DNA from: Candidatus Curtissbacteria bacterium RIFCSPLOWO2_12_FULL_41_16
GTDB taxonomy: Bacteria > Patescibacteriota > Microgenomatia > Curtissbacterales > GWA2-41-24
Direction: 5' to 3'
Length of the DNA: 54,574 nucleotides
Assembly (NCBI GenBank): GCA_001776545.1
Contig: MFBZ01000020.1
Coordinates: forward strand, 1 to 54,574
Shown here: positions 5,950-29,684 of the stretch, piece after piece
How the letters are laid out: each line of letters begins with the position of its first letter
Numbering within the stretch: the stretch's first letter is position 1
Notes under the pieces: model-generated
Database searches by the model: none
Told to the model about the DNA's origin: nothing
What the model saw: the letters and a program-made list of their open reading frames with translations, nothing else
Translations under genes and position numbers: made by a program

Positions 5950-5979
5950 TTACTCTAATGATCTAGATCAATAGAGTAA
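5950..5979. repeat. 30-bp near-perfect palindrome TTACTCTAATGATCTAGATCAATAGAGTAA just downstream of the TrpR-like gene
   Basis: Self-complementary except for one A/A pair; 2 nt from the stop codon at 5982-5984. Confidence 0.9.
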
Positions 5980-5981
5980 GG

Positions 5982-6419
5982 TCAGACTAACGTTTTCTTT
6001 TTATGACCGAGTTTATATTTCACAGCTTCTTCTGGCAAAAATACCTTTCCGGGTGAACTCAATCTGTAGAGTAGATTTTCTATTTCTTGCCAAAATTGTT
6101 TTCCAGCTTCGGTCCTGATCAATTTGTTTATGGCCAATTGATAGCCCTTATTCATTTTCAGTATTAGCGAAATCTTTGCCACCGTCTCAGTCGACACCTT
6201 TAGAAAATCTTTTATTGTCTCATAACTATTGCCTTTTAACAGTAGAGCTGCAATAGCTAGTCTTTTAGCGATCATCACGCGTTCGATAGGCGAAAGTAAA
6301 TCGTTTAAGAAAATCTGGACATCATCCTTATCGCGAACTTGCGAAATCGCCTCCCAAAGAGTTTCAAACATCTGCTGTTCTACCTGTTTAAGTAAAATCC
6401 TTCGCGAAATCTGTGTCAC
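5982..6419 (-). CDS. TrpR-like YerC/YecD family HTH protein
   Basis: FLNDLLSPIERVMIAKRLAIAALLLKGNSYETIKDFLKVSTETVAKIS matches the TrpR/YerC pattern (DLLT..E...R......L..G.SY..I......S..TV.R). Confidence 0.85.
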   Translation of the reverse strand: MTQISRRILLKQVEQQMFETLWEAISQVRDKDDVQIFLNDLLSPIERVMIAKRLAIAALLLKGNSYETIKDFLKVSTETVAKISLILKMNKGYQLAINKLIRTEAGKQFWQEIENLLYRLSSPGKVFLPEEAVKYKLGHKKKTLV

Positions 6420-6445
6420 TCTAATTATCTAGATTAATAGAGTAA
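6416..6445. repeat. Second, more degenerate palindrome copy TCACTCTAATTATCTAGATTAATAGAGTAA overlapping the GTG start and promoter
   Basis: 27/30 identical to 5950-5979. A minus-strand TTGACA lies at 6455-6460. Confidence 0.9.
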
Positions 6446-6515
6446 CCGGAATTCTGTCAAGAAGATACCGATCAATGAAAATAAGCGGATTTGTTCGATT
6501 AAATAATGTTAATCT

Positions 6516-6755
6516 GTGTCAGAGGTCATAAGACACCCGCCTCTCGACTTCGATCAAACCCTTGATGATTATAGAAAAGTTTGCCTCCAGAATCTCGCTG
6601 TTGATATAATTAACCCAGTGTTTTTAGCTAAATTTAGATCTGTCGCTTCAATTTCGATCCCAAATTTCGAAGAAATTTGGAAAGGAGAAGTGCGAGTGCG
6701 TTCAGAGTCTGCCGGTTGGCAGACTATCAAAAGCACGAGCCATTTCGACGCATGA
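6516..6755 (+). CDS. Small hypothetical protein translationally coupled to rmlA
   Basis: 79-codon ORF whose TGA overlaps the rmlA ATG (ATGA at 6752-6755); no recognisable motif. Confidence 0.4.
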   Translation: MSEVIRHPPLDFDQTLDDYRKVCLQNLAVDIINPVFLAKFRSVASISIPNFEEIWKGEVRVRSESAGWQTIKSTSHFDA

Positions 6756-7483
6756 AAGGTGTAATTTTAGCCGGCGGTAACGCCACGCGCCTTAGACCCC
6801 TCACCTGGGTTACCAATAAGCACCTTTTGCCCATTTACAACAAGCCAATGATTTTTTATCCTCTGGAGGCTATGTCTCGTGCCGGCATTAGTGATGTTTT
6901 AGTAATTACCGGTCCAAATCATTCTGGCAGCTTTATTAATCTCCTGCGGTCCGGTAAAGATTTTGGGCTAAGGCTTTCCTACGAGATTCAGGAAGAAGCC
7001 GGTGGCATTGCTCAGGCAATCGGGCTTGCCGGCGAATTTGCGGATAATGAAAAAATTCTCGTTATCCTCGGGGATAACATATTCAACCAATCTCTCAAGA
7101 GAGATGTTGAGGAGTTTGAAAAAAAGGAAAAAGGCGCGGTTGTTTATGGTAAACGCATGGCAACCAAAAGTAAGCAATATGGGGTAATCGAGGTTAAAAA
7201 CAGTAAAGTTATCTCAATAGAAGAAAAACCGGAAAAACCGAAATCCGACATCGGCCAAACAGGAATTTATATGTACGACCATAGAGTTTTTAATTTAATT
7301 AGAAAGTTAAAACCCTCCACAAGAGGCGAACTCGAAGTTACCGACCTTAACAATTTTTACGTTAAGGAAGGAACAATGATTTGTAAAATATTAACTTCCT
7401 GGTGGGTGGACGCGGGAACGTCTTTTGATGAACTCTTGCGCGCCAACGTTCTGGTTGCTAAAGAAATCAGCAAAGAAAAATGA
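6752..7483 (+). CDS. rmlA: Glucose-1-phosphate thymidylyltransferase (short, SpsI/archaeal-like)
   Basis: MKGVILAGGNATRLRPLT...NKHLLPIYNKPMI, EEKP, RGELEVTD, WWVDAGT; first gene of the rml cluster. Confidence 0.9.
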   Translation: MKGVILAGGNATRLRPLTWVTNKHLLPIYNKPMIFYPLEAMSRAGISDVLVITGPNHSGSFINLLRSGKDFGLRLSYEIQEEAGGIAQAIGLAGEFADNEKILVILGDNIFNQSLKRDVEEFEKKEKGAVVYGKRMATKSKQYGVIEVKNSKVISIEEKPEKPKSDIGQTGIYMYDHRVFNLIRKLKPSTRGELEVTDLNNFYVKEGTMICKILTSWWVDAGTSFDELLRANVLVAKEISKEK

Positions 7484-8490
7484 GAATTCTTGTCACGGGT
7501 GGCGCCGGTTTCATTGGCTCCAACTTTATACATTATTGGCTTCAAAATCATTCGTCTGATCAAATAGTCAACTTCGATAAACTAACCTACGCGGGCAATC
7601 TGGAAAATTTGAAAAATATCCGGAATAATGAAAACTATACTTTCGTAAAAGGTGATATCGCCAGTTCCAAGGATGTCACTCAAGCAATGAAAGGTATAGA
7701 TATAGTTATCAATTTTGCCGCCGAGACTCATGTTGACAGGTCCATTCTTGATCCGGCACCATTTGTCATAACCAACGTGGTCGGCACTCAGGTTTTACTT
7801 GACGCCGCGGCAAAAGCAAAGATCAAACATTTCCATCATGTCTCAACCGATGAAGTTTTCGGCGCGCTTGATTTGGCATCCAGGCAAAAGTTTAGCGAGG
7901 AAACGAACTATAATCCCAGAAGTCCTTATGCCGCTACTAAGGCCGCCTCCGATCATCTTGTTCGTGCTTATTTTGCCACCTACAATCTGCCCGTCACCAT
8001 TAGCAATTGTTCCAATAATTTCGGGCCCTATCAATTTCCTGAAAAATTAATTTCACTTTCGATCACCAATTTACTTGAAGGCAAAAAAGTACCCGTTTAC
8101 GGTGACGGTTTATACGTTCGCGACTGGCTCTATGTAGAAGACCACGCGAGCGCCATTGATCTTGTTTTACAAAAAGGCAAAATAGGCGAAACTTATTGTA
8201 TTGGTCAAGACAACGATATCGCGAACATCGAGGTTATTAAAAAAATATTGGCGATTTTGGCCAAAGGCGAGTCGATGATCGAATACGTCAAAGACCGTCC
8301 GGGGCATGATCGGCGTTATGCCATGGATGCTACCCGTATTAAAAAAGAACTTGGTTGGCATGCTAAATATGATTTTGACATGGCTCTTGAGCTGACCATT
8401 AAATGGTATCAACAAAACACAAAGTGGTGGAAAAAGTTAAAGGACAGGAAATTTGAAGAATATTATGAAGAGCAGTATGTTAAAAGATAA
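7480..8490 (+). CDS. rmlB: dTDP-glucose 4,6-dehydratase
   Basis: GGAGFIGSNF, DKLTYAGN, FAAETHVDRSI, HVSTDEVFG, YAATK, DRPGHDRRY. Confidence 0.95.
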   Translation: MRILVTGGAGFIGSNFIHYWLQNHSSDQIVNFDKLTYAGNLENLKNIRNNENYTFVKGDIASSKDVTQAMKGIDIVINFAAETHVDRSILDPAPFVITNVVGTQVLLDAAAKAKIKHFHHVSTDEVFGALDLASRQKFSEETNYNPRSPYAATKAASDHLVRAYFATYNLPVTISNCSNNFGPYQFPEKLISLSITNLLEGKKVPVYGDGLYVRDWLYVEDHASAIDLVLQKGKIGETYCIGQDNDIANIEVIKKILAILAKGESMIEYVKDRPGHDRRYAMDATRIKKELGWHAKYDFDMALELTIKWYQQNTKWWKKLKDRKFEEYYEEQYVKR

Positions 8491-8518
8491 TTTCAAATTT
8501 CAAATTTAAAATTATTCA

Positions 8519-9040
8519 ATGAACTATCAATACATCACCTTCAAAAATCAACATAATCTTATTGAGGGCGTAGTCTTAAGAAAATTGGTCATCAATAAAG
8601 ACGAATCAGGGTCACTGGTTGAGACTTTACGTAAAGACTGGAATGACGTTTTTGACAGTCAAAATCTCCCTTTTGCCATGCAATACTTGTCAATTACCCC
8701 GCAGGGCGTTGCCCGCGACGAAGACAAATGGCATGTCCACAAAAATCAAGAAGACCGTTTTATATGTGTTTCGGGCCGGATTGTCACGGCCGTTTTTGAT
8801 CCCAGGGTTGAGTCACAAAGCTGCGGCAAGTTTAACTTATTTGTTATGGGGCCGCAAAACGAGGATGAAATGTTCATAATTGTTATTCCGCAAAAAACAT
8901 ACCATGGCTTTATGGTAATTTCCACCGAACCCGGTTATCTTATAAACTTTCCAACCCGGCTTTATAATCCTCAAGACGAAGGGAGAGTTCAAAACAGCCA
9001 GCTTGATTGGAATAAAGTCAGGGATGATTTCAAATTATGA
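8519..9040 (+). CDS. rmlC: dTDP-4-dehydrorhamnose 3,5-epimerase-like cupin
   Basis: LIEGV..., WHVHKNQEDRF, IPQKTYHGF; lies between rmlB and rmlD. Confidence 0.75.
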   Translation: MNYQYITFKNQHNLIEGVVLRKLVINKDESGSLVETLRKDWNDVFDSQNLPFAMQYLSITPQGVARDEDKWHVHKNQEDRFICVSGRIVTAVFDPRVESQSCGKFNLFVMGPQNEDEMFIIVIPQKTYHGFMVISTEPGYLINFPTRLYNPQDEGRVQNSQLDWNKVRDDFKL

Positions 9041-9936
9041 AACTCTTAGTGGTTGGTTCGAAATCTATGGTCGGCTCGCGTTTTTGCGAACTTGCCACTG
9101 CCGATTTCAATCTGGTCAAAGCCGACCTTCATGACCATGTTTCTGTAGATATTACGCGAGTTGATTCGCTAACGTCGTCTTTTAAAAATCAAAAGTTCGA
9201 GTGGCTCGTTTTATTTTCTGCCTTTACCGATGTAGACGGGGCCGAAGAACAAAGAAATGATAAAAACGGCGCTTGTTGGCAAATTAACGTCGAAGGGGTC
9301 AAAAATGTTGTAGGCGCATGCCTTAAATATCAAAGAAAATTAATTTTTATTTCAACCGACTTTGTCTTTGACGGGACTGGCGGGCCATACAGTGAAAATG
9401 ATCCCATGGGCCCTGATCTTGATAAAATTTCCTGGTATGGCATAACTAAAAAAGAAGCGGAAAAGATTATCACAAAAGCACTTTCTAAATTTATAATCCT
9501 CAGAATCTCTTATCCGTACAGAGGAAGATTTGGCAAAAAAGACGATATTGCCAAAAGAGTTTTAAGACTATATCGGGGAAATAGGCTTTATCCGATGTTT
9601 ACCGACCAGACAATTACTCCGACTTTTATTGATGATCTTTCACCCGCATTAAGTCTTCTTCTTGCGGAAAATCAGACAGGTATTTTTCATCTGGCAAGCC
9701 CAACGGCTACCACACAATATGATTTTGCCAAAGAAGTTCTCGGGGTTTTTGGTGAAGATCCTGGCCGTCTCCGCAAAGGATCGCAAGCGGAATTTTTAAA
9801 AACCGCGCAAGCCGTACCCAGACCGAAAAACACCAGTCTCAAAGTTGATAAAATTAAAGCTCTTGGCTTTGAACCAACCGACTGGAAAAGAGGAATAAAA
9901 ATAATTTATGAACAATCAAAAGGTCGATTGATTTAA
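9037..9936 (+). CDS. rmlD: dTDP-4-dehydrorhamnose reductase
   Basis: AFTDVDGAE, FISTDFVFDG, YGITK, DQTITPT, GIFHLA, PRP. Confidence 0.85.
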   Translation: MKLLVVGSKSMVGSRFCELATADFNLVKADLHDHVSVDITRVDSLTSSFKNQKFEWLVLFSAFTDVDGAEEQRNDKNGACWQINVEGVKNVVGACLKYQRKLIFISTDFVFDGTGGPYSENDPMGPDLDKISWYGITKKEAEKIITKALSKFIILRISYPYRGRFGKKDDIAKRVLRLYRGNRLYPMFTDQTITPTFIDDLSPALSLLLAENQTGIFHLASPTATTQYDFAKEVLGVFGEDPGRLRKGSQAEFLKTAQAVPRPKNTSLKVDKIKALGFEPTDWKRGIKIIYEQSKGRLI

Positions 9937-9990
9937 TTGGTCGTTTTTGGCTAGAATTACTTAAATTTTGAATTGTTAATTTAAATTATC

Positions 9991-11292
9991 ATGACTCTTA
10001 CTATTGTCGGTGCAGGTTATGTTGGTTTGGTGACAGCCGCTGTTTTTGCCGATCTCGGCAATAGGGTTTTTTGTGTTGACATTGTCAGGGAAAAAGTAGA
10101 GGGATTAAAAAAAGGCAAAGTTCCGTTTTTTGAACCGTCCCTGACAGAGTATGTTGTCAGAAATCAAGCCGCAAAAAGACTTTTTTTTACCACAAACTAT
10201 TCAGAAGCAGTACCTAAATCACAAGCGGTTTTTATCTGCGTGGGCACACCCCCCAAAAATAACGGCGAGGCAGACCTTTCTTATCTTTTTGCGGCAGTGG
10301 AGGAAACTGCCAAAAACCTTTCCGGCTATACTTTAATTGCCATTAAAAGTACAATTCCGATAGGTTTCGAAGATGATCTTGAGGCTACAGTTAAAAAATA
10401 CGCCAAAACTAAATTCGAATTTGGCGCTTGTCCGGAGTTCTTAAGAGAAGGAACGGCTATTGAGGATACTTTGCATCCGGACAGGATCGTTATCGGTGCG
10501 ACTTCTAAGAAAGCCCAAAAAGTTTTATTAGAACTTCATGCGCCGATTTCCGGCGAAAGAATCATTTGTGATGTTCGTTCCGCCCAGCTTATAAAATATG
10601 CGGCAAATGCTCTCTTGGCAACCAAAGTTTCTTTTGCCAACGCATTGGCCGCTTTGTGCGAAAAAATGGGGGCAGACGTTAAGAAAGTGCTGGCAGGAGT
10701 AGGCGCTGACCGCCGAATCGGCCACTCCTTCCTTTATCCTGGTGTTGGCTATGGAGGTTCGTGTCTTCCCAAAGATGTTTTGGCATTTATTCATCTGGCA
10801 AACCATTTTGGATACGACTTTGACCTTTTGCGCTCCGTTGATGCCGTCAATAACGGTCAGATCGAGGCCTTTATCGGCAAGGTGCGGACGGCTTTAGGCA
10901 ATGGGCATTTAAAGCGAGGACTGGCGGGTAAAAAAGTTGCAGTTTTGGGTTTGGCTTTTAAGCCAAATACTGATGATATACGGGATGCTCCGTCTGTCAA
11001 GGTCATCAATCATCTGGTTGATCTGGGCGCGGAGGTTACCGCTTATGATCCGCAGGCCATGGCAAATGCTCGAAAAATTTTTCCTAAAATCAAATACGCG
11101 CCAAACGTCTACAAGGCCATCGAAGGTCAAGATGCCATGCTTGTTGTCACCGAATGGTCCGAGTTTCGGGAAATGGACCTTTCGGTAATAAAAAAACTCC
11201 TTAAAAGGCCAATAATTATCGATGGCCGCAATATTTTTGACCCTGAGAAAGTTAAAGGTTTAGGGTTTAAATACTACGGAATCGGCCGATGA
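9991..11292 (+). CDS. ugd: UDP-glucose 6-dehydrogenase
   Basis: GAGYVGL, CVGTP, KST, PEFLREG, GYGGSCLPKD, LAFKPNTDDIR, DGRN. Confidence 0.9.
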   Translation: MTLTIVGAGYVGLVTAAVFADLGNRVFCVDIVREKVEGLKKGKVPFFEPSLTEYVVRNQAAKRLFFTTNYSEAVPKSQAVFICVGTPPKNNGEADLSYLFAAVEETAKNLSGYTLIAIKSTIPIGFEDDLEATVKKYAKTKFEFGACPEFLREGTAIEDTLHPDRIVIGATSKKAQKVLLELHAPISGERIICDVRSAQLIKYAANALLATKVSFANALAALCEKMGADVKKVLAGVGADRRIGHSFLYPGVGYGGSCLPKDVLAFIHLANHFGYDFDLLRSVDAVNNGQIEAFIGKVRTALGNGHLKRGLAGKKVAVLGLAFKPNTDDIRDAPSVKVINHLVDLGAEVTAYDPQAMANARKIFPKIKYAPNVYKAIEGQDAMLVVTEWSEFREMDLSVIKKLLKRPIIIDGRNIFDPEKVKGLGFKYYGIGR

Positions 11293-12242
11293 AAAAAGCA
11301 TTAATCACCGGCATTGCCGGCTTTGCCGGCAGCCACCTGGCAGAATATTTACTTTCTAAAAATTTTGAGATTTTTGGCTTTTACCACCCGGGCCATTCAA
11401 CACAAAATGTCGCCGGTATCAAAGATAATATTAAACTAATTGATTGCGATCTGCTTAATCAGTCCCGGCTTAGGCGAGAACTAAGGTTGATCCGGCCGGA
11501 TTACGTTTTTCACCTGGCCGCCTTTTCTTCTCCGGCCGCCAGCTTTCAAAATCCTCGCCAAACCCTGGAAAATAATATCTTCGGCCAGCTTAATCTTCTG
11601 GAAGCTTTGGCCAAAAGTAAATCAAAAGCGAAAATCCTGGTTGTCGGATCTGCTGACGAATACGGTGATATTGACCCCAAATATTTACCGGCAAAAGAGG
11701 TCACCCCTTTATCGCCGATTTCTCCATACGCGGTTTCTAAGGTCGCTCAGGATATGTTGGGTTTACAATTTTTCTTACACCATAAACTTCAGATAGTGCG
11801 CGTTAGGCCATTCAACCACATCGGACCAAGACAATCTGCAAGCTTTGTGGTTTCCGCTTTTGCTGCTCAGATTGCAGAGATGGAGTCAAAAGGTGGCCAA
11901 ACAATTATAGTTGGTGATCTTTCAAAAGTGCGTGAATTTACAGACGCCAGAGATATGGTCAAAGCTTATTTGTTGGCTTTAGAGAAATGTCTACCGGGAG
12001 AAGTTTATAATATTGGGACAGGCATCCCGGTTAAAATCGCCGATCTTTTAGAGATGTTGCTTAGTCTGGCGCGAGTTAGAATAACAGTGAAAGTTGATAA
12101 GTCCAGAATTCCGCCTGTCGATATCAAAATGATTTATTGCGATCCATCAAAGTTTCAAAAAGCCACCAGCTGGAAGCCCAGGATCCCGCTTTTAAAAACC
12201 TTATCTGATACAATTGAATACGAACGAAAAAAGTTAAGATAA
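11289..12242 (+). CDS. rmd: GDP-4-keto-6-deoxy-D-mannose reductase-like (Rmd) SDR
   Basis: ITGIAGFAGSHL, HLAA, GSADEYG, PYAVSK, RPFNHIGPRQ; adjacent to gmd. Confidence 0.7.
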   Translation: MKKALITGIAGFAGSHLAEYLLSKNFEIFGFYHPGHSTQNVAGIKDNIKLIDCDLLNQSRLRRELRLIRPDYVFHLAAFSSPAASFQNPRQTLENNIFGQLNLLEALAKSKSKAKILVVGSADEYGDIDPKYLPAKEVTPLSPISPYAVSKVAQDMLGLQFFLHHKLQIVRVRPFNHIGPRQSASFVVSAFAAQIAEMESKGGQTIIVGDLSKVREFTDARDMVKAYLLALEKCLPGEVYNIGTGIPVKIADLLEMLLSLARVRITVKVDKSRIPPVDIKMIYCDPSKFQKATSWKPRIPLLKTLSDTIEYERKKLR

Positions 12243-12342
12243 TTTTTTATTTGAAATTTAAAATGTTGAAAATTCAATGAAAATACCAAAGCGTATTTTT
12301 GATAAATTAAAAAGTAAAAATTAGAAATTGAAAATTACTGGA

Positions 12343-13320
12343 ATGGCCCAAAAAAGAGCTCTCATCACCGGCGTTACCGGACAAGACGGATCGTACTTGG
12401 CCGAATTCCTGCTTTCAAAAGGGTATAAAGTTTTCGGTCTGACCAGAAGAACATCAACTCCAAATTACGAAAGGATTAAGCATATTGAGGACAAAATTGA
12501 ACTGATCCCCGGCGACATTTTAGACCAGCAGTCGCTAACTTCAGCTGTTTCCCTCGCAAGGCCGGACGAAATTTATAACTTAGCCGCCCAAAGTTTTGTG
12601 GCAACTAGCTGGTCTCAGCCGGTTTTAACCGGTGAATTTACGGCTCTTGGAGTAACCAGAATGCTGGAAGCGGTAAGACAAGTCAAACCGGATGCCAAAT
12701 TTTATCAGGCATCATCGTCTGAAATGTTTGGCAAAGTGAAAGAGTCTCCCCAAAATGAAAAAACCCCTTTTCACCCCCGCAGCCCTTACGGCGTGGCCAA
12801 GGTTTACGGCCACTGGATTACAATCAATTACAGGGAATCTTATGGTCTTTTTACAGTTTCCGGTATCCTTTTCAATCATGAATCACCCCGTCGCGGTCTT
12901 GAGTTTGTTACCCGTAAAATCAGCCATAACGTCGCCAGGATCCATTTAGGGCAGGTCGGCCATATTGTTCTCGGCAATCTCGAAGCAAAACGCGACTGGG
13001 GGTTTTCCGGAGATTACGTGCAGGGGATGTGGTTGATGCTCCAGCAGGACAAGCCTGATGATTATGTTATCGCAACAGGCGTTAATCATTCCGTAGCGGA
13101 ATTTGTCGAAGAAGCCTTTAAAGTTATTGGAATTACTAACTGGAAAAAATACGTCAAAGTTTCCAAAGAATTTTTCAGGCCGGCTGAGGTGGATTTTTTA
13201 GTTGGCGATGCCACTCGCGCAAAAAGAGTTTTAGGCTGGAGACCGAAAATCACATTTAGCAAGCTTGTCGAAATGATGGTTAAGGCAGATATTGCCTTAC
13301 TTTCGAAAAACTCCCAATGA
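12343..13320 (+). CDS. gmd: GDP-mannose 4,6-dehydratase
   Basis: [54 protein letters not shown]. Confidence 0.95.
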
Positions 13321-14534: not shown

Positions 14535-14541
14535 TTTTCCC

Positions 14542-16059: not shown

Positions 16060-16084
16060 TATAAATCACAAATTAACCCAACCA

Positions 16085-16103
16085 ATTCCACCTGGGAGGT
16101 GGA
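16085..16103. repeat. REP hairpin ATTCCACCTGGGAGGTGGA upstream of RAYT
   Basis: 7-bp stem TCCACCT/AGGTGGA; inverted copy at 16842-16860 (17/19). Confidence 0.8.
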
Positions 16104-16144
16104 TTATCCTTGACACCTAGGAAAAATTTTAGTAAAACTGACAC

Positions 16145-16828
16145 ATGCCGGGTAGATTATTACCTTTGGTAACAGGCGAGATTTACCATGTCTTTAACAG
16201 GGGTATCGATCATCGTCCAACATTTACAAGTGTTGGAGAATACAAGCGAGCTCTAATTACTATTAAGTTCTATCGATTCTCCTCTCAACCAGTTAAGCTC
16301 TCCCGTTTTTTAATCCTCTCTGGAGAAGAAAAAGGAAAATTTTTTTCAGATGTAAAACGAGAAGAAAAGTTCTTGGTTGAGTTTCTTTCTTTTTGTCTTA
16401 TGCCCAATCATTTCCATTTTCTTATAAAACAAGTACAAGATGGTGGCATATCTCGCTTTATGAGCAATTTTCAAAATAGTTTCACGCGTTATTTTAATGT
16501 CAAGCATGAAAGAACCGGCCAATTGTTTCTTAATCAGTTTAAAGCAGTCAGAATCGAAACTGATGAACAATTTCTTCATGTCTCTCGTTATATTCACCTT
16601 AACCCCCACTCTTCTTTTATAGTAAAAAACTTATCAGATTTAGAAAACTACCAATGGTCATCGTTGTTCGAACATCTTGGTGATTCAAAAGATGGAATTT
16701 CCAACAGTGAAACAATCCTTTCATTTTTCAAGGACAAACAAAATTACAAGGGTTTCGTCTTTGACCAGGCAAATTACCAGAGAGAGCTTGATAAGATAAA
16801 ACACCTAGTAATTGACTCGGATACCTAG
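16145..16828 (+). mobile_element. REP-associated tyrosine transposase (RAYT / IS200-like Y1 HUH superfamily)
   Basis: IYHVFNRG, FCLMPNHFHFL (HUH), FTRYFN.KH.RTGQLF, YIHLNP, YQWSS; flanked by inverted REP hairpins. Confidence 0.9.
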
Positions 16829-16837
16829 GTGTTATAC

Positions 16838-17278
16838 CTATTTCACCTCCGAGGTGGAATATTGGTAAAGCTTATGTTCTAATGTGACACCAACCGCCAG
16901 TACGCCGACTTTTTTAAGATTACGTCTTTTGACCTCATCCAGAGCTACGTCAACAATACTCAACATTTTGCGGCCTGAAACCTCTTCTAGTTGCTTTTGA
17001 AAAAAGTGTGGGGTGTTTGAAGTGATTACCAAAAAATCAACATTAGTTCCTAATTGCCTTGCTGCACCCAAAAGTCTCAGATCTGGTTTCAGTGGTATTT
17101 GAGGAGATCCGTCTTCATTTAAAATCATTGGGGCATGGCGGAAATAATGAACGATCATGGGCGGATAACCTCGATTAACATATTGAGGAATCATTTCTTG
17201 AGATGCTTGATGAATTTGTTCTTCAAAATCCATTGTCGCCTGCGGTCCAAGTCCACCGATGACACCAATGGTTTTCAT
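16838..17278 (-). pseudogene. Aspartate/glutamate racemase family gene, C-terminally truncated at the REP
   Basis: MKTIGVIGGLGPQATMDF...VITSNTPH...KKVGVLA..T...LYQ, then YSTSEVK*, where most of the tail comes from the REP. About 146 aa from MKTIG, versus roughly 230 aa for the family; the second catalytic motif is absent. Confidence 0.7.
16842..16860. repeat. REP hairpin TTCACCTCCGAGGTGGAAT downstream of RAYT
   Basis: Reverse complement ATTCCACCTCGGAGGTGAA matches 16085-16103 at 17/19. Confidence 0.8.
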
Positions 17279-17418: not shown

Positions 17419-17426
17419 CCCAGAAG

Positions 17427-18338: not shown

Positions 18339-18354
18339 ATCTAACCTCCATAAT
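18325..18354 (+). promoter_or_regulatory. Putative sigma70 promoter (leaderless type)
   Basis: TTGACA-18 nt-CATAAT, 7 nt before ATG 18362. Confidence 0.55.
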
Positions 18355-18361
18355 AGTTTCC

Positions 18362-20555: not shown

Positions 20556-20563
20556 TACGAAAC

Positions 20564-21784: not shown

Positions 21785-24213
21785 TTAAAAGACAAAACCT
21801 CGCACCAGTCGTTTTTATTTTTCTGGTTACTTGTTTAATTTTCTTCAAGATTTTTCTTAAAGGGCTTTATCCGATTCCCGCAGATCTTTTAGTTTCTTTT
21901 TATTTTCCTTGGTATTCCGGCGGTTGGGAAGGTTATAACCCATGGACCACCCACAAGGAAATGTTAGGGGCAGACAGCATCCGTCAGATTTATCTCTGGA
22001 AAGAATTTGCCGCCGAAAGTTTTAGAAGTGGCCAATTCCCGCTTTGGAATCCGTACACATTTTCCGGCCAGCCTCTTTTGGCTAACTTTCAGTCTAGCGT
22101 TTACTATCCTCTCAACGTCTTTTATTTCCTGACAGACCCCAAAAATGCCTGGATTCTTTTGATTGTTACTCAACCGTTTTTAGGCGGAATTTTTATGTAT
22201 ATGGCCCTCAGAAGCTTCAAAATCTCATCCGTCCCTTCAGTTTTTGCCGCAGTTGCCTTTATGTTCTCAAGCTATCTTGTAACCTGGATGGAAAATGGTA
22301 ATATCTCCCACGCCTATATTTGGCTGCCACTGGCCTTTTGGGCAATTAATAACTTTTTTGAAAATCGCGAGCTTTCAGGTGGATTCAGATATATTTTAAT
22401 TTTGATTCTCTCCCTTTCGTTTTCTATTCTCGCCGGACATCCTCAAACGGCTATTTATTTATACATGGTCACCTTTTTATTTTGGGTTTACAAAACCTGG
22501 GAATCCAAAAACCAAAAACTTGTCTTGGCCGCCCGCTATTTTTTAGTGGTGGCAACCACTATTTTTGTCACGGCGATTCAGTTAATTCCTGTTTATCAGT
22601 TTTATCAAAACTCGCCGATTTCCCTACCCTTTTCTAAAGAAGTTTTTGAAAAAAGTATCATGCCATACAAAAATTTGGTAACTTTTTTTGCCAGCGATTT
22701 TTTTGGCCACCCGGCTACAGGTAATTTCTGGAGCCAGACTTATGGCGATTTCACCCCTTATTTCGGCGTGATTCCCTTAGTTTTTGCAATCTGGGGAATT
22801 TTTAGATTTTGGAAAAATTCGTTTGTAAAATTTGCAACTTTTGTCTCCGTTATTTTTATTTTATCCGCCGTTCGCGGGCCGATAACTTGGTTTATTAAAA
22901 CTTTTCAGATTCCACTTCTGGATTCGACTACTCCTTCAAGGTTTATTTCAATTTCAATATTTCTTCTGATAATTCTCTCCGCCTTTGGTTTTGAAGATTT
23001 TATTCAAAATATTCACAATAAAAAGTATTTAAAAAAATTTTTCACTTTTTTAATTCCATTCTTAGTAATATACGGAATTCTTTGGTTATTCGCAATTTTT
23101 GGGCATTTCTTCCTAAAACCGCAGGACACATGGAAGATTAATCTTTCGGTCACGCGTAGAAATCTCATCCTGCCAACTTTAATGTTTATCTCAATACCTT
23201 TACTCGGTTCAATGATTCAAATCATTAAACTAAAGACTAAACTGTCGGCTTATTGGCTAAAAACCCTTTTTGTTGTAAGTATTTTAACAGTGATAGTCGT
23301 CGGAGGAATCTACTATACTAATAAGTTTTTACCAGTTGCACCAAAGAAATTTATATTTCCGGATCATCCGCTTTTTTACTGGTTGCAGCACGCTGCGGGC
23401 ATAGACAGATTCTATGGCGGGGGCACTGCTCACATAGATTTCAACTCCCCGACACATTATAAAGTTTATGGCGCTGAAGGTTATGATACTTTAAGACTGC
23501 AAAGATATGCCCAGCTTCTGGCATCTGGCTTTTTGGGGAAAGTTCCCGAATCATATTTAAGGTCAGATGGTGTATTCTCTAATGAAGAAAACGGGTATCG
23601 CCGAAGGCTTTTTGAGCTTTTAGGAGTCAAATACCTGTTAGATAAAGAGGATAACCCAAAAACTGGTGCAGACTGGCATTACGAACGGTTTCCAGGCGAC
23701 AATGTCCGGGGATTTTGGCAGTACGACAAATTTCAAGTTTACATGCGCCAACCGACATTACCAAGAGTTTTTCAAACGACAAAATATTATGTTGCCAAAA
23801 GCGATAAGGAGATTATCGAAAAAATATACGACCAAAATTTTAGTCTTCAAACACTCATTCTCGAAAAAGAACCACCGATTAAAATCTCACCCGTCGAGGA
23901 AGAAATCTTCGAACCGCAACTGGTCAAATACGAACCAAATGAAATCAAAATTACCACAAATTATGATTATAACTCGCTTTTATTTATCTCAGATGCCTTT
24001 GATCCTGACTGGCAAGTCTATCTTGACGGTAAACCCTGGCAACTTTTGAGAGCCCACTATGCTTTAAGATCAACACCAGTCCCAAAAGGCAAGCACCTAA
24101 TTATTTTTAAATATCAACCCAAATCTTTTAATATTGGCGTTTATACATCATCATTATCTTTCATTGGACTTCTAGTCTTTAGTGTTTACTTGATTATTAA
24201 AAGAAAATTTTAA
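21781..24213 (+). CDS. YfhO-family membrane glycosyltransferase-like protein
   Basis: PLWNPYTFSGQPLLAN.QS..YYP, LAGHPQ, GYD, LGVKY, LPR, C-terminal W..Y.DG...V.KG.H...F.Y.P. Confidence 0.8.
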   Translation: MIKRQNLAPVVFIFLVTCLIFFKIFLKGLYPIPADLLVSFYFPWYSGGWEGYNPWTTHKEMLGADSIRQIYLWKEFAAESFRSGQFPLWNPYTFSGQPLLANFQSSVYYPLNVFYFLTDPKNAWILLIVTQPFLGGIFMYMALRSFKISSVPSVFAAVAFMFSSYLVTWMENGNISHAYIWLPLAFWAINNFFENRELSGGFRYILILILSLSFSILAGHPQTAIYLYMVTFLFWVYKTWESKNQKLVLAARYFLVVATTIFVTAIQLIPVYQFYQNSPISLPFSKEVFEKSIMPYKNLVTFFASDFFGHPATGNFWSQTYGDFTPYFGVIPLVFAIWGIFRFWKNSFVKFATFVSVIFILSAVRGPITWFIKTFQIPLLDSTTPSRFISISIFLLIILSAFGFEDFIQNIHNKKYLKKFFTFLIPFLVIYGILWLFAIFGHFFLKPQDTWKINLSVTRRNLILPTLMFISIPLLGSMIQIIKLKTKLSAYWLKTLFVVSILTVIVVGGIYYTNKFLPVAPKKFIFPDHPLFYWLQHAAGIDRFYGGGTAHIDFNSPTHYKVYGAEGYDTLRLQRYAQLLASGFLGKVPESYLRSDGVFSNEENGYRRRLFELLGVKYLLDKEDNPKTGADWHYERFPGDNVRGFWQYDKFQVYMRQPTLPRVFQTTKYYVAKSDKEIIEKIYDQNFSLQTLILEKEPPIKISPVEEEIFEPQLVKYEPNEIKITTNYDYNSLLFISDAFDPDWQVYLDGKPWQLLRAHYALRSTPVPKGKHLIIFKYQPKSFNIGVYTSSLSFIGLLVFSVYLIIKRKF

Positions 24214-24241
24214 TAACTTTTAAACAAGGTCTAAATTAGTT

Positions 24242-25828
24242 ATGAAAAACCATCTAATCATCTTGATTCTATTATCCATAATCGCTCTCTGGCCGTTTTT
24301 TAAAAAAGGATATTTTGAAAGTCACGACGGGGAATGGATGGTTATCCGGTTTTCGGCATTTCACCAAACTTTGTCAGCCGGTCAGTTTCCGGTCAGATTT
24401 GTTGACCGCCTGAACAATAATTACGGTTATCCTGTTTTAAACTTCCTCTATCCGCTGCCATTTTATTTTGCAGAAATCCCCAAAGCCCTTGGATTTGGCT
24501 TCGTAGATAGTGTCAAAATAATATTCGTCTTCTCGACAGTGTCCTCTGTGGTTACCATGTACTGGGCACTATCCCAGGTTTTTGACAAAAGAGCCGGTTT
24601 TGCCGGAGCCGCGCTATATTTATTCGTTCCCTATCGTTTCCTTGATCTTTACGTCAGAGGCAGTCTTGGCGAAGGCGTTGCTTTTATGTTTGTACCATTA
24701 ATTCTCGGAAGCATTTTTAAAATCAAAAAAGGTCAAAAGATTTTCCTGCCAATTCTTGCGTTTGCTACTGCCGGTCTTATCCTGTCCCACAATGTCACGG
24801 CAGCAGTCTTCATCCCGTTTTTTGTATTTTTCAGCTATCTTGTGACCAAAAAACTCAGGATGTTTTTATCAGCTTATGTCCTTGGTATCGCGATGTCATC
24901 CTTCTTTATAATTCCCGCTCTTCACGATTTACGCTATGTAAAGCTCTCACAGATCAGAATCTCAGAGCTGCAAGACCACTTAGTCAGCCTTCATAAATTA
25001 ATCATCCCATCATGGGGCTATGGTCCTAATCCCAACAGTCCTGACGGACTCTCGCCTCAGCTGGGGATTGTCACCGTCGGCATTTTTGCAATCACCCTAT
25101 TTCTGGTTGTCACCCGAAAAATTAAAGACAGGCTGATCATCTATTGTTTGTTAGCCGTCGTCCTGTCGGCGGTCTTAATGACCAAAACCTCGCTACCTGT
25201 CTGGCAGGCTATACCGTCTGCTGATATTATCCAGTTTCCCTGGAGATTGCTGTCAGCAGTTGTATTTATCGCCGCCTTCCTGGCAGCTTATCAAGTCAAC
25301 ATATCTGAAAAGAAAAGTCTTCTTGCGGTACTCGTTGTTATTGCCGCCTTCGTCTCTACCATACTCTATACCAAGCCAGCCGTCTTTGTTGCCAGGGGAG
25401 ATAGTTTTTACTCCACCAACGAGGACACCACCACTGTCCGTGACGAATATTTGCCCTTATGGGTTAAAGAAAAAAAACAGAACAGGGCTTACAAGAAGAT
25501 CGAAATTATCGGTGATGGCCAAATTATACGAGAAAATATACAAGCATCAAAATACCAAGCTATTATTAGCGCAAAAGAGAATATCCAAGTAGTGGTTAAT
25601 ACTATTTATTTTCCAGGACACCAAGTAAAAGCTTATGGACTAGAAGCGCCAATCAAATACGACAATCAATATGGCCTTATCACATTTCAATTGCCAGAAG
25701 GGAATCGCACAGTTATAATCAGCTATGGTAGGTCTCCTATCCATCTAATAAGCGAAGCGATATCACTGGCAGCTTTGTTTACTGGTGGAGGCTACTTTTA
25801 TTATTTATGGCGAAAGCAAAATTCTTAG
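24242..25828 (+). CDS. Membrane protein, 6-pyruvoyl-tetrahydropterin-synthase-related / GT-C-like family
   Basis: SHDGEW, GQFPVRF, YGYPVLNFLYP, PYR..DLYVRG.LGE, LSHN, QFPWR, EYLP, YFPG. Confidence 0.75.
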   Translation: MKNHLIILILLSIIALWPFFKKGYFESHDGEWMVIRFSAFHQTLSAGQFPVRFVDRLNNNYGYPVLNFLYPLPFYFAEIPKALGFGFVDSVKIIFVFSTVSSVVTMYWALSQVFDKRAGFAGAALYLFVPYRFLDLYVRGSLGEGVAFMFVPLILGSIFKIKKGQKIFLPILAFATAGLILSHNVTAAVFIPFFVFFSYLVTKKLRMFLSAYVLGIAMSSFFIIPALHDLRYVKLSQIRISELQDHLVSLHKLIIPSWGYGPNPNSPDGLSPQLGIVTVGIFAITLFLVVTRKIKDRLIIYCLLAVVLSAVLMTKTSLPVWQAIPSADIIQFPWRLLSAVVFIAAFLAAYQVNISEKKSLLAVLVVIAAFVSTILYTKPAVFVARGDSFYSTNEDTTTVRDEYLPLWVKEKKQNRAYKKIEIIGDGQIIRENIQASKYQAIISAKENIQVVVNTIYFPGHQVKAYGLEAPIKYDNQYGLITFQLPEGNRTVIISYGRSPIHLISEAISLAALFTGGGYFYYLWRKQNS

Positions 25829-25851
25829 TAACAGGTGACGCCGGCTTTTAG
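25807..25851 (+). pseudogene. Dead 5' fragment of an NAD-dependent epimerase (MAKAKFLVTGDAGF*)
   Basis: Near-copy of the start of the next gene (SKIKFLVTGGAGFIG), with a G-to-D change and a TAG. Confidence 0.6.
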
Positions 25852-25950
25852 TCTTTTGTAGCCGTTATGGGCTTTTGTAAAAACGTCCATAATAGCGAAA
25901 AAAGCGCAAAACGGAGTGATCAGAAAGATGATTTATATGCTGGGGGACAA

Positions 25951-26928
25951 TTGAGTAAGATTAAGTTCTTAGTAACCGGCGGAGCCGGATTTATTGGTTC
26001 CGAAATTGTTAGGCAACTTTTAGACGCCGGTTATTATGTTCGCGTTGCTGACGATCTTTCTAAAAAGGATATCCAAGTCGACAGGCGGGCAGAATTTGTA
26101 AGGGTAGACTTAACCGATTATCAAAAAACCCAAAAAGTTTTTGAAAGTGTTGATATTGTTATTGCCGCTGCTGCCAAAATCGGCGGTATTGGTTACTTTC
26201 ACAAATACCCGGCTACAATTCTTTCGGAAAATAACAAAATCTACAGCAGCACCTTTGAAGCTGCAGTCAAAAACGGTATCAAAAGATTCGTTTATATTTC
26301 ATCTTCAATGGTTTTTGAATCAGCGAGCACTTTTCCATCCAAAGAGGAAGACGTCAGAGTTATCCCGCCGCCCATCACTTCTTATGGTTTCGCAAAACTC
26401 AGCGGTGAATGGTACTGTCATGCCTTTTGGGACGAGTATAAACTCCCTTTTTCGATCTGTCGCCCTTTTAATGCCTATGGCATCAATGAATTTCCCGAAA
26501 GAGAAATCGGTTATGCCCATGTGATACCGGATCTGGTCAGAAAAATTCTTAACGGACAGTACCCGCTCGAACTGTTAGGCGATGGTAATCAGACTCGCTG
26601 CTTTACCCATGTTTCAGACGTTGCGGGTGGTATCACCACAGTTGCTCTTAACCCCAAGGCCAAAAACCAGGATTTTAATATTGGGCAAGATTCAGAAATT
26701 AAAATGATTGATTTAGCAAAAAAAATCTGGGAAATAATGGAAGTTAAAAAACCATTTAAAGCGAAATTTATCCCAGGCTTTAAGTATGACATTAAAAGGC
26801 GTGTTCCGGCCGTATCAAAAGCAAAGAGACTACTTGGCTGGGAACCAAAAGTTAAATTAAAAGAAGGACTAAAGGAGGTTATTAATTGGTTAAAAGAACA
26901 AAAACTCCAGGGAAAAATCGAAAACTAA
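25951..26928 (+). CDS. NAD-dependent nucleotide-sugar epimerase/dehydratase
   Basis: VTGGAGFIGS, AAKIGGI, YISSSMVF, YGFAK, RPFNAYG, GNQTRCFT. TTG start chosen after GGGGG; the ORF track starts at 25867. Confidence 0.85.
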   Translation: MSKIKFLVTGGAGFIGSEIVRQLLDAGYYVRVADDLSKKDIQVDRRAEFVRVDLTDYQKTQKVFESVDIVIAAAAKIGGIGYFHKYPATILSENNKIYSSTFEAAVKNGIKRFVYISSSMVFESASTFPSKEEDVRVIPPPITSYGFAKLSGEWYCHAFWDEYKLPFSICRPFNAYGINEFPEREIGYAHVIPDLVRKILNGQYPLELLGDGNQTRCFTHVSDVAGGITTVALNPKAKNQDFNIGQDSEIKMIDLAKKIWEIMEVKKPFKAKFIPGFKYDIKRRVPAVSKAKRLLGWEPKVKLKEGLKEVINWLKEQKLQGKIEN

Positions 26929-28214
26929 CCATTACCGTTGTCGGAACAGGCAGAGTCGGATTGCCGCTTTCAATATTTCTTTCAACCATGGGTCATCTTG
27001 TTTACGGCATCGATACCGATCAAGCGAAGGTCGATTTTATCAACAAGGCCCGGATGCCTTTTTTAGAAGAAGGGGCAGAGCCTTTACTACAAAAATATCT
27101 TGGCCAATCACTTTTCTTCTCCACGGATTTTTCCACTATCGCCCGCGCTAAAGTCATTATTTTAACCCTGGGTACCCCCGTTGATGAAAACATGAATCCT
27201 TCTTTAGTGCAGATAGATAAGGCTCTTGATACCGCCAAACCTCATTTTAAAAAAGGACAACTTTTGATATTGCGCTCAACCGTTTCTCCGGGTACTACCG
27301 AATACGTCAGATCGTATCTTACGGAGGCGGGATTCAAAATTGGTAGCGATTTCTTCCTGGCTTTTTGTCCGGAGAGAATCGCTGAAGGCAGATCTTTGGC
27401 GGAACTTGCCGAAATCCCGCAAATCGTTGGAGGAGTCGAAAGATTAAGTACTCAAAAAGCTGCCGAGTTTTTTGGGAGTCTTAATATTGAAGTCAACCTC
27501 ACCGATAGTGTTTCTGCGGAACTTGCTAAGCTTTTTACCAATATGTATCGTTATATCAACTTTGCCATTGCCAACGAGTTTATGATTTTAGCAGGTAATT
27601 ATCACAGGGATATTTACCAAATTGTTGATCTTGTAAATCGAAACTATAAACGAGGAGGCCTTGCTTTACCTGGATTGACCGGAGGCCCATGTCTTTTTAA
27701 AGACGGATTTTTCCTGGTGGGAGATGTTCCTTTCCCGGACCTTATCGTAAACAGTTGGAAGATTAATGAATCCATTCCGCTTTTTCTAATAAAAAAAGTC
27801 AGGGAAAGGATCAGGCTTGAAGGAAAAAAAACAGTTATTCTGGGATTGGCATTTAAAGCTGAAATTGACGACATTCGCGAGTCGCTGGCTTTTAAGGTTA
27901 AAAAAGCACTGGAAAGAGAAAGGGCCAAGGTTTTCTTGCACGATCCATATGTTCCAGGCTATCAAAACAATTTAGAAGAAATCACCAAAGATGCGGATCT
28001 TATCTTCTTGGCAACCAATCACGAGTTCTACAAAAAATTAGATATTGCGCATGTCCGCAAATTGGTCTCTAAAAATTGTGTCGTTTGTGATGTTTGGAAT
28101 ATTTTCAAAACAAACAAGATTATTTTTACTATCAAATCCCTGGAGAGTCATTTGGCCAAAACCCCAATTGAGGGCTTAGGTGACATTTTTGAATCCAAAT
28201 GGCGCGATGTTTGA
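26886..28214 (+). CDS. Nucleotide-sugar 6-dehydrogenase (WecC/UDP-HexNAc type)
   Basis: GTGRVGLP, LGTP, RSTVSPGTT, CPERIAEG, AELAKLFTN, GGPCLFKD, LAFKAEIDDIRES. Confidence 0.85.
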   Translation: MVKRTKTPGKNRKLTITVVGTGRVGLPLSIFLSTMGHLVYGIDTDQAKVDFINKARMPFLEEGAEPLLQKYLGQSLFFSTDFSTIARAKVIILTLGTPVDENMNPSLVQIDKALDTAKPHFKKGQLLILRSTVSPGTTEYVRSYLTEAGFKIGSDFFLAFCPERIAEGRSLAELAEIPQIVGGVERLSTQKAAEFFGSLNIEVNLTDSVSAELAKLFTNMYRYINFAIANEFMILAGNYHRDIYQIVDLVNRNYKRGGLALPGLTGGPCLFKDGFFLVGDVPFPDLIVNSWKINESIPLFLIKKVRERIRLEGKKTVILGLAFKAEIDDIRESLAFKVKKALERERAKVFLHDPYVPGYQNNLEEITKDADLIFLATNHEFYKKLDIAHVRKLVSKNCVVCDVWNIFKTNKIIFTIKSLESHLAKTPIEGLGDIFESKWRDV

Positions 28215-28215
28215 T

Positions 28216-28912
28216 ATGAAAACTAAACCTCTTTATTATGAAGACGCTTATTTGAGGGGAATAGATTCAAAAGTTTTATCAATCGAGCCGAAAGGGAGTT
28301 TAACTAATATTGTTCTTGATCAAACTATTTTTTATCCAGAAGGTGGAGGACAGCCTTCGGACCGAGGAAAATTGGGGGCTATAAGCGTTGAATTTGTAAG
28401 ATTATCTAATGATGAAATTACTCATCAGGCAAAAGGTACATTAAAAGTTGGAAAGACTGTCCATGCGATTTTGGATTGGCATTAGCGCTACAAACATATG
28501 AAGCTACATTCTGCTGGTCATTTACTTCATGACGTTATCTCGGGCATGTTTACCAGTCTCAGACCTTTAGGTGCAAGCCATGGCAAAGAAAGCCTTTATT
28601 CATTATAAAGGCATAATTGATCATTCAAAAAAAGAAGAGATAGAAATTGAAGTAAACAGAGTAAAAGAGCAAAACTTGCCCATAGTCACAAAGTATGCCA
28701 CTTACGAGGAGATTGCCAAGGAGTCAAAATTCATGCCACCCAATCTTCCTAAGAACAAAACCTTAAGAATGCTCAAGATTGGGAATTACCCAGCGATGGC
28801 AGATGGCGGTGTTCAGGTTAAAAATACAGCTGAAATCGGCAAGATTTGGATCGCCAATATTTATGTTAATAAAGAAGAAACGATAGTCAGATACGGAGTC
28901 GTTGGGTCTTAG
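28216..28912 (+). pseudogene. alaX: AlaX-type alanyl-tRNA editing protein, disrupted
   Basis: LYYEDAYL, LDQTIFYPEGGGQPSDRG, then an in-frame TAG at 28483. The same frame continues RYKHMKLHSAGHLL, then a frameshift near 28582-28590 leads to AFIHYKG...LRMLKIG...DGGVQVKNTAEIG. Confidence 0.85.
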
Positions 28913-28931
28913 CTAATACCACTGCAGTATT

Positions 28932-28959
28932 CCAAAAATACGCAATTGCGTATTTTTGG
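28932..28959. repeat. 28-bp perfect palindrome CCAAAAATACGCAATTGCGTATTTTTGG downstream of the PaaX-like gene
   Basis: Exactly self-complementary; 7 nt from the stop codon at 28967-28969. Confidence 0.9.
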
Positions 28960-28966
28960 TAGAGGC

Positions 28967-29545
28967 TCAAAGTCCAAAATATTCCTTGTAAATTTGTTCG
29001 TTTTCCAAATTATCCGCCCGTATAATCATTACTTCATCACTAATACCAAAATATTCTCTTAAATATGCGATCTGTTCAGAACAGGGATACGGAGTTAAAT
29101 AAACACTTTTCTGCAGAGGGAAAAAGTTCATCTCGCGAATCAAGCGTCTAAACTGTTCCTGTTGGTTTTTACGGAATTTAGAAATATCATACAATACTAT
29201 CCGCCATTTACCATCCCACTTTGGAGTTCTTAATGATAATTCCTTTAATTGAAACTTCAGGAATTTTGTCTGGCCTTTAGTCGTTAATTTAATAATCTCC
29301 TCGCCATTTTTCTTTATAAACTCTACGACTTTTTGATCTCTAAGTCTTTTTAAATTTCTTCTTAAATGGGGCAAATTGAATTTTCTCCATTCTTTCTCTG
29401 CCCTTCGCCGGTCACTTTCATCCTTTGCTTTGATAATCTCTTTAGCAACAAATAGAGCTCTCGGTATCACAATACCAGCAGTAAGCAAAAAGCCCATTCC
29501 CAAAAGATAAATAATCTCTTTAGTTGTTGGGTATTTAGTCTTCAT
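28967..29545 (-). CDS. PaaX-like protein (winged HTH + Cas2/VapD-like ferredoxin domain)
   Basis: LRRNLKRL...IKLTTKG (wHTH); WDGKWRIVLYDI...FRR......F.PLQKSVY..PYPC (PaaX central/Cas2-like). ATG at 29545; the ORF track uses TTG 29560. Confidence 0.85.
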   Translation of the reverse strand: MKTKYPTTKEIIYLLGMGFLLTAGIVIPRALFVAKEIIKAKDESDRRRAEKEWRKFNLPHLRRNLKRLRDQKVVEFIKKNGEEIIKLTTKGQTKFLKFQLKELSLRTPKWDGKWRIVLYDISKFRKNQQEQFRRLIREMNFFPLQKSVYLTPYPCSEQIAYLREYFGISDEVMIIRADNLENEQIYKEYFGL

Positions 29546-29562
29546 AAATAAATTAAACAATC

Positions 29563-29596
29563 TATTACAAAAATGCGCAATAGCGTAAAAGTGGTA
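29563..29596. repeat. Degenerate second palindrome copy upstream of the PaaX-like gene
   Basis: TATTACAAAAATGCGCAATAGCGTAAAAGTGGTA vs TATTCCAAAAATACGCAATTGCGTATTTTTGGTA (28928-28961): 27/34 ungapped. Confidence 0.8.
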
Positions 29597-29678: not shown

Positions 29679-29684
29679 CATTTC

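Follow-up and report, generated by a model that had tools for sequence, protein, structure and literature searches.

Why should three functionally unrelated single genes within one stretch of a small bacterial genome each lie between two copies of a palindrome of their own? The question is raised by contig C20 (MFBZ01000020.1) of Candidatus Curtissbacteria bacterium RIFCSPLOWO2_12_FULL_41_16 (30 contigs, 995,255 bp, ~41% G+C), analysed over its 54,574 nt and hereafter called the window. It carries a gene for a TrpR-like regulator, a gene for a small PaaX-like regulator (mini-PaaX), and a RAYT (REP-associated tyrosine transposase-like) gene, all of which have surface and glycan genes as neighbours in Pfam searches and are functionally unrelated to them. 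An earlier note on this DNA had proposed that the three genes form one candidate class, being either minimal mobile cassettes or DNA-binding proteins paired with their own operators. From comparative sequence analysis we consider it likely that two different things share one layout, namely a REP/RAYT unit on the one hand and, on the other, TrpR-like and mini-PaaX proteins that would be autoregulated transcription factors encoded between their own operator pairs. The Patescibacteria (candidate phyla radiation, CPR) are uncultured and gene regulation in them is almost unknown, and a conserved operator at the stop codon of a regulator's own gene, in two unrelated families, would be an unusual regulatory design. 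In what follows, G numbers denote genomes (G000 being the present one), L numbers loci, and C numbers contigs of G000.

Palindrome pairs around three genes

All three genes are flanked by gene-specific palindrome-like pairs, far beyond what chance would produce, and every element described in the earlier note was found in its place. Upstream and downstream flanks were compared for the 953 genes of G000, with a match of at least 20/24 taken as a bracket; 20 genes reached this level, among them all three PaaX-like genes, the TrpR-like gene of the window (one of two in the genome), and three of the seven RAYT genes. The 28-mer at the TrpR-like gene has three sites at ≤4 mismatches in the 995,255 bp, two of which are the bracket itself. 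Palindromes with a partner of at least 20/26 within 2.5 kb were also overrepresented (19/583 versus 25/2915 displaced controls).

The TrpR-like gene (5982..6419, minus strand) encodes 145 aa with a Trp_repressor domain (PF01371) at residues 18-99 that exceeds the Pfam gathering score (49.3 bits against 27, 5.3e-13), followed by a C-terminal extension of ~45 aa. A 28-bp dyad, TACTCTAATGATCTAGATCAATAGAGTA, lies 3 nt past the stop codon (5951..5978) and folds as a DNA hairpin at -6.7 kcal/mol (z -4.3); its central CTAG recalls trp operators. The upstream dyad (6417..6444) is identical at 25/28 positions (3 mismatches), folds at -3.6 kcal/mol, and overlaps with its last 3 nt the GTG start codon. 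Ten nucleotides upstream of it stands a -35-like hexamer, TTGACA (6455..6460, minus strand), which a generic promoter scan did not call because the second hexamer is weak. TTGAC(A/T) recurs at equal spacing at loci L031-L034, and in L037, L059, and L060 its distance from the repeat differs slightly; no hexamer of this type precedes the downstream copy in the TrpR group. The start position is likewise conserved among homologues (M-[STA]-Q-[VI]). With hexamer and start both conserved, the upstream dyad covers the -10/start region of the gene's own promoter; it is probably an autoregulatory operator, and the downstream dyad probably a second one.

The mini-PaaX gene (28967..29560, minus strand), recognised from its open reading frame (ORF), PF20803, and a family alignment, most likely starts at the ATG at 29545 and encodes ~190 aa made up of a winged-helix region and a PaaX_M/Cas2-like domain (PF20803, 61.2 bits against a Pfam cut-off of 24, 1.1e-16), with no Pfam match to PaaX_C at E up to 0.01. 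A hydrophobic stretch in the N-terminus, considered as a membrane anchor, is by eye equally readable as the first winged-helix helices, and no claim is made for it. A perfect 26-bp palindrome, CAAAAATACGCAATTGCGTATTTTTG, lies 8 nt past the stop codon (28933..28958), folds strongly (-12.2 kcal/mol, z -8.3), and is identical at 26/30 positions to the same copy in the metagenomic orthologue L233. The upstream copy (29568..29593) matches it at 20/26, ends ~22 nt before the ATG, and hardly folds (-2.9 kcal/mol, z -1.7). Taken alone it is weak, as its 6 mismatches in 22 are a level met by 28 sites genome-wide, and it is made more credible by its position and by L233, whose upstream copy matches it at 23/30. 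The downstream palindrome is probably a second operator and the upstream copy an autoregulatory one. The closest named relatives of this gene are found in metagenome-assembled genomes (MAGs) of Daviesbacteria and Curtissbacteria, and the other two PaaX-like paralogues of G000, on contigs C22 and C19, have flank pairs of their own that differ from that on C20.

The RAYT gene (16145..16828, plus strand, 227 aa) carries a Y1_Tnp domain (PF01797, 35.7 bits against 23, 1.1e-8) and scores 50.7 bits in the stricter NCBIfam model REP_Tyr_transpos, under its cut-off of 80. REP-type hairpins stand upstream of it (CCACCTGGGAGGTGG, 16088..16102, -6.1 kcal/mol) and, inverted with respect to the first, 14 nt past its stop (TCACCTCCGAGGTGG, 16843..16857); its upstream/downstream flank score is 19/24. 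The REP 14-mer CACCTCCGAGGTGG has 10 exact copies in the genome and 25 at ≤1 mismatch. Seven RAYT paralogues are spread over contigs C2, C6, C17, C19, C20, C28, and C29 of this ~1 Mb genome, and a hairpin pair peculiar to the gene flanks at least five of them. By the published definition of REP/RAYT units (PMC2817692; see also PMC3116915), the RAYT of the window, standing between two REP hairpins in inverted orientation, is an instance of that known unit and not a third case of what surrounds the two regulators. Its neighbours are a PMT_2 glycosyltransferase and a racemase gene. The TrpR-like gene is flanked by an M23 peptidase/PsbP-like pair and rmlABCD, and the mini-PaaX gene stands between genes for a UDP-glucose dehydrogenase (UGDH) and a family-2 glycosyltransferase (GT2).

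All three proteins are distant family members, as they fall under the curated NCBIfam cut-offs for YerC/YecD, PaaX, Cas2, and RAYT: the TrpR-like protein misses the YerC/YecD (HisR) model TIGR02531 (33.9 versus 42.2 bits), and mini-PaaX both the PaaX equivalog TIGR02277 (26 bits versus a cut-off of 264.55) and the Cas2 model TIGR01573 (16.8 versus 24.5 bits).

The bracket as a trait of two regulator families

Paired palindromes recur around homologues of both regulators. A PaaX-like gene was present in 17 of 41 related genomes, with up to 9 copies in one, and among the 28 analysable loci (L010, at a contig edge, and L015, with internal stops, were dropped) 19 are bracketed, as compared to 5/300 mismatched upstream/downstream pairs. 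A wider set, drawn from Microgenomates and Parcubacteria lineages of the Patescibacteria and including one Nanoarchaeota contig, comprised 80 loci, of which 8 were dropped for short flanks or N and one more went unscored; 48 of the remaining 71 (counting L105, a miscalled ORF) have the bracket, versus 4/400 controls. For the TrpR-like family, whose paralogues number up to 8 per genome, the corresponding figures are 15/24 loci in relatives versus 6/300 mismatched pairs, and 12/22 in a phylum-wide sample from a single-protein search of low sensitivity that recovered 15/301 genomes, giving 27/46 over both samples; L056 and L057 (not recovered by tblastn), L049 (74 aa), L058 (no start), and L036 and L050 (short flanks) were left out. 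The bracket is confined to long TrpR-like proteins (27/38 at >125 aa versus 0/8 at ≤125 aa; Fisher p 0.0003, relatedness not corrected), a result that points at the ~45-aa C-terminal extension, though length is confounded with phylogeny.

Every paralogue has a private element, in G000 as in its relatives, as the earlier note had predicted. The similarity between upstream and downstream copies is limited to 26-36 nt, and the copies are mostly in direct orientation. Their placement is regular: in TrpR-like loci the median distance from the end of the upstream match to the start is 12 nt and that from the stop to the downstream match 2 nt (interquartile range -2 to 7), and in PaaX-like loci the medians are 27 nt before the start and 18 nt after the stop. 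Centre-to-centre distances are ~440-520 bp and 545-850 bp, respectively. The downstream copy stays at the stop codon with spacers of ~20 as well as ~560 nt between it and the following gene. That gene is co-directional at 16/27 PaaX and 15/24 TrpR loci, in which case the copy lies just before its start, for example 14 nt before the ATG of a hydrolase gene in G003 and G021; at the remaining loci it is convergent. Since the bracket is kept at convergent loci too (7/11 PaaX, 8/9 TrpR), the 3' copy is not simply an operator of the downstream gene.

A few further copies occur elsewhere in the genome. The PaaX element of the window recurs at position 1355 of contig C17, 19 nt upstream of pgl, which is followed by gnd, and that of the C22 paralogue at position 31525 of contig C2, where it overlaps the tsaE stop and precedes a Sua5/TsaC-type gene by 16 nt. 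The TrpR element recurs at position 66217 of contig C16, between a CYTH-domain gene, in whose 3' end it lies, and hrcA, which starts 273 nt further on. In the three genomes with the closest named PaaX relatives (60-62% identical), searches with a degenerate pattern gave 5, 2, and 2 sites, both bracket copies always among them, and the reversed control pattern gave none. Extra copies directly upstream of other genes are operator-like and count against a cassette.

Together, the recurrence of the bracket within families, its promoter geometry, and the additional operator-like sites fit the second alternative of the earlier note, a DNA-binding protein with its own operator pair. The encoded dimer would bind a dyad-symmetric double-stranded site; occupancy of the upstream operator, over the core promoter and start region, would bring about negative autoregulation, and binding of the same regulator at one or a few sites directly upstream of other genes would define a small regulon. 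The second operator copy would be held at the stop codon by selection. The units would not be mobile now and would instead be self-contained modules that in the course of evolution came to be inserted at operon junctions or moved from one junction to another. If so, a flanking-site rule pairs a regulator with its site from sequence alone and makes regulon prediction possible in hundreds of genomes; in G000 it points to pgl-gnd and the Sua5/TsaC-type gene for the full-length mini-PaaX paralogues (C20, C22) and to the CYTH/hrcA spacer for the TrpR-like protein.

It is quite possible that the 3' copy serves as an auxiliary operator, acting together with the site at the promoter to form a loop of the 0.45-0.65-kb gene between them. 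It could also, with a somewhat smaller chance, be a roadblock or insulator against RNA polymerase leaving or entering the gene, gating any co-directional gene downstream. Looping and roadblock or insulation both fit the data on the 3' copy, and that it does something else again is doubtful. No intrinsic terminator was found flanking the TrpR-like or the PaaX-like gene, and an absence of Rho was considered as a reason for roadblocks, but a Rho gene is present.

An unlikely extension is that each unit is a portable, self-insulating transcription unit, in which repressor bound at both ends would loop the gene and block RNA polymerase from either side, acting as a protein-made terminator and insulator that would work wherever the unit lands. 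If true, this would explain the insertion of the units at operon junctions (UGDH|GT2, PsbP2|rmlA, EamA|hydrolase), the ending of conserved DNA at the palindromes, and the same design in two unrelated families of compact CPR genomes. In a bolder version, the duplicated palindrome would be what is left of an insertion process in which a palindromic target is copied. A conserved operator at the regulator's own stop codon may show in what way small genes of compact genomes are shielded from transcription around them.

Weighing operators against mobility and hairpins

Several observations weigh against autoregulated factors between operator pairs. At about a third of the loci no bracket was detected, and the gene calls come from a longest-ORF heuristic. 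The second TrpR-like paralogue of G000, on contig C8, has unlike ends (17/24). The palindrome just past its stop, GTTCAATAGTTTGAACTATTGAAC (C8 14365-14388), recurs at 23/24 and 22/24 inside conserved genes, of the RsmI methylase type and RuvX (C6 29886-29909, L192; C16 36635-36658, L193), and so behaves like an in-frame REP-type repeat and not an operator. No helical phasing of the two copies was seen in the largest set (41 loci, Rayleigh p ≥0.118 at six periods); small sets gave uncorrected p values of 0.017-0.039. At many loci the copies are identical at 24/24, which exceeds the need of operator function alone, so that gene conversion or recent duplication is possible. The remaining points are those that a mobile cassette would fit as well. 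The 1.4-kb UGDH|GT2 insert has nothing in common with L233, the nearest carrier of the gene, except a conserved block of palindrome, gene, and palindrome (28928..29599, minus strand; palindrome to palindrome ±5 nt; blastn of 28100-29750: 76% over 682 nt, query 829-1500), and the DNA on either side of this block is not homologous. The PaaX unit interrupts the UGDH-GT2 pair in one of 34 related metagenome contigs, that of L233 (79% protein identity). Homology of the TrpR unit to three orthologues stops at the outer edge of the upstream dyad (L031 position 1959-1961), and the unit follows PsbP2 in G000 and precedes M23 in G001.

These last observations, together with the identical copies at many loci, a patchy spread of 0-9 copies per ~1-Mb genome, and the <200 nt that separate UGDH and GT2 in 25 of the 34 contigs, are what favours the first alternative of the earlier note, that of minimal mobile cassettes: the palindromes would be the ends of a unit moved in trans (by HUH/RAYT, Xer-like, or other recombinases) or by its own protein, with the regulator as cargo or as a marker of its own ends. 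We regard this as distinctly unlikely. Orthologues hold their place across genera: EamA, PaaX, and the hydrolase gene are collinear in G003 and G021, with EamA-PaaX also kept in G016; the TrpR gene adjoins rmlA in G000, G021, and G015; and the C19 PaaX-like paralogue is collinear with its orthologue in G017. The closest family pair, with 87% protein identity, is syntenic, and near-identical or identical multi-copy units are absent within genomes. Upstream and downstream copies also descend separately. Between L003 and L005 the downstream copies match at 29/30 and the upstream copies at 26/30, compared to 24-26/30 within a locus; the 26/30 and 23/30 between G000 and L233 compare with 22-23 within a locus. 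Copies in orthologues are at least as alike as those within a locus, and are therefore old and maintained and not fresh target duplications.

Empty sites with a single palindrome, which the earlier note had suggested looking for, did not appear: no solo palindrome was found at PsbP2|rmlA in G001, at EamA|hydrolase in G009, or in the 25 metagenome contigs with UGDH and GT2 <200 nt apart. The boundaries of the window's UGDH|GT2 insert lie ~720 nt and ~55 nt beyond the palindromes, and the conserved -35 element stands outside the bracket. With a different element in every unit, no single enzyme acting in trans could serve all of them, and Pfam and NCBIfam detect a known catalytic domain in neither the TrpR-like nor the PaaX-like protein, just as PHROGs holds no match to either regulator. 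Near-identical copies, conserved terminal hairpins, and clean empty sites, by which a transposon-like or HUH cassette would be recognised, were not found for the regulator units. The palindrome-edged homology, to which belongs that with the TrpR orthologue of G021 beginning at the outer edge of the downstream dyad, we take to mark where selection on a self-contained promoter-operator-gene-operator module ends, within junctions that change fast. The units of the window do not look like a new class of mobile cassettes, although a cassette history keeps a small probability, and a tempting misreading is thereby cleared up.

That the elements work as hairpins, whether as 5'/3' stem-loops of the mRNA (in stability, termination, or translational control) or as cruciforms, is very unlikely, even if the downstream copies in the window fold well, follow directly on the stop codon, where terminators sit, and have no intrinsic terminator near them. 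No T-run follows the downstream copies, an Rfam scan of window positions 5000-30500 gave no match, and hairpin function would not require the shared sequence that the two copies have. With the -35 conserved, transcription would start inside the upstream copy, so that no 5' hairpin would be transcribed. Across the family, 11 of 20 TrpR flanks fold no better than their shuffled versions (z above -2), and folding is not conserved over 10 TrpR-like loci at which the upstream/downstream sequence match is. The better-folding copy among these ten was the downstream one at four, the upstream one at three, and neither clearly at three; the earlier observation that the downstream copy is near-perfect and the upstream one decayed holds for both regulators of the window and does not extend to a general rule. 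Unconserved hairpin potential and poorly folding upstream copies argue against hairpin-reading HUH enzymes as well as RNA stem-loop roles.

It is highly improbable that the 3' copy is a functionless leftover of tandem duplication (operator-gene-operator-gene with one gene lost) or is kept alike by gene conversion. In favour of this, the families grow by duplication, up to 8-9 copies in a genome, the copies are mostly direct repeats, and in TrpR orthologues the downstream copies drift faster (17-23/30) than the upstream ones (23-28/30). Against it, 48/71 Patescibacteria-wide loci retain the bracket amid non-coding DNA that cannot be aligned, orthologues agree in the downstream copy at 29/30 and 26/30 positions, and the place of this copy at the stop holds for 20- or 560-nt spacers.

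The UGDH|GT2 junction (window 28180-28912; L228-L267) is variable, holding, besides the short spacers of 25 contigs, an unrelated 210-253-aa ORF in 7 contigs, an orf472-like gene in one, and, in the window, a 101-aa alanyl-tRNA-synthetase-type fragment and a 113-aa ORF next to the PaaX unit. The GT2 gene is preceded by a conserved TTGAC(A/T)-N17/18-TA(C/A)AAT ending 6 nt before its ATG (window 29649-29687; L230, L235, L247), which suggests that its mRNA is leaderless or near-leaderless; in some empty contigs, such as L235, the -35 overlaps the UGDH stop codon. At the G009 locus (L189/L191), which is without the PaaX-like unit present in G003, G021, and G016, the EamA gene is split over two frames and the hydrolase gene is in fragments, indicating a decaying locus. 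A ~110-nt element (ttcaccat.ctgatgttgtaattattgttcgaggct...) common to two unrelated loci in different genomes (L233 ~1270-1385, and L076 upstream of rmlA) looks like a miniature inverted-repeat element. A 19/24 copy of GTTCAATAGTTTGAACTATTGAAC is located inside the YfhO-like gene of the window (23207-23230). Identical 26-mers, 428 nt apart beside a bAvd-like gene on contig C4 (28552-28577 and 28980-29005, L072), are probably the template and variable repeats of a diversity-generating retroelement. On contig C17 (4707-6083, L063) a promoter-like 24-mer containing TATAAT precedes the start of a sigma-70/ECF-like gene and is repeated after the stop (22/24); this may be an autoregulated sigma factor and a target promoter.

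Relation to known systems

A literature search, with most subscription journals outside its reach, found no description of this arrangement for either regulator family, in agreement with the earlier note. The RAYT of the window resembles the published REP/RAYT units in its inverted hairpins on both sides and in the recurrence of its REP in the genome, and differs in the low REP copy number and in a host outside the groups first described. The two regulator genes depart further from such units: they have no HUH enzyme, their elements are double-stranded dyads and not conserved hairpins, and these elements number 3-5 copies per genome, not tens or more. With insertion sequences the regulator units share a gene for a DNA-binding protein placed exactly between copies of its predicted binding site and conserved DNA that stops at the repeats. 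Unlike insertion sequences, they have no catalytic domain, no identical copies, and no target duplication that could be seen; their repeats are mostly direct and their inheritance is vertical.

PaaX, the repressor of phenylacetate catabolism (Escherichia coli, 8a39), binds palindromic DNA, and mini-PaaX has in common with it the winged-helix region and the PaaX_M (Cas2-like) domain. With ~190 aa and no detected PaaX_C, mini-PaaX gives a sequence match to 8a39 at E 0.52 only, has no paa genes nearby, and differs from PaaX in its private operator bracket. The TrpR-like protein belongs to the same fold family (PF01371) as HisR (YerC) and TrpR and gives weak sequence matches to YerC-type structures (3frw, 3g1c, 3kor). 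HisR/YerC proteins of the TrpR family recognise palindromes of 20 bp and frequently control their own genes through a site upstream of them (PMC9413887), a likeness that extends to the dyad-symmetric, putative operators described here. The differences lie in size (145 aa including the ~45-aa extension, against under ~100-120 aa), in private 26-30-bp sites in place of a shared 20-bp motif, in multi-copy paralogues of up to 8 per genome, and in the conserved second site at the stop codon, which the consulted passages of PMC9413887 do not report for HisR or TrpR.

The layout also resembles that of repressors with several operators. Through looping or roadblocks, the lac (O1/O2/O3), gal (OE/OI), and deo systems and PurR, which is autoregulated by sites downstream of its start, achieve cooperative repression or a block to elongation. 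As in these systems, one repressor would act at two or more like sites hundreds of base pairs apart, one of them at the promoter. What sets the units of the window apart is a second site tied to the stop codon of the regulator gene itself, conserved across hundreds of loci in two unrelated families and kept there even when the next gene is convergent.

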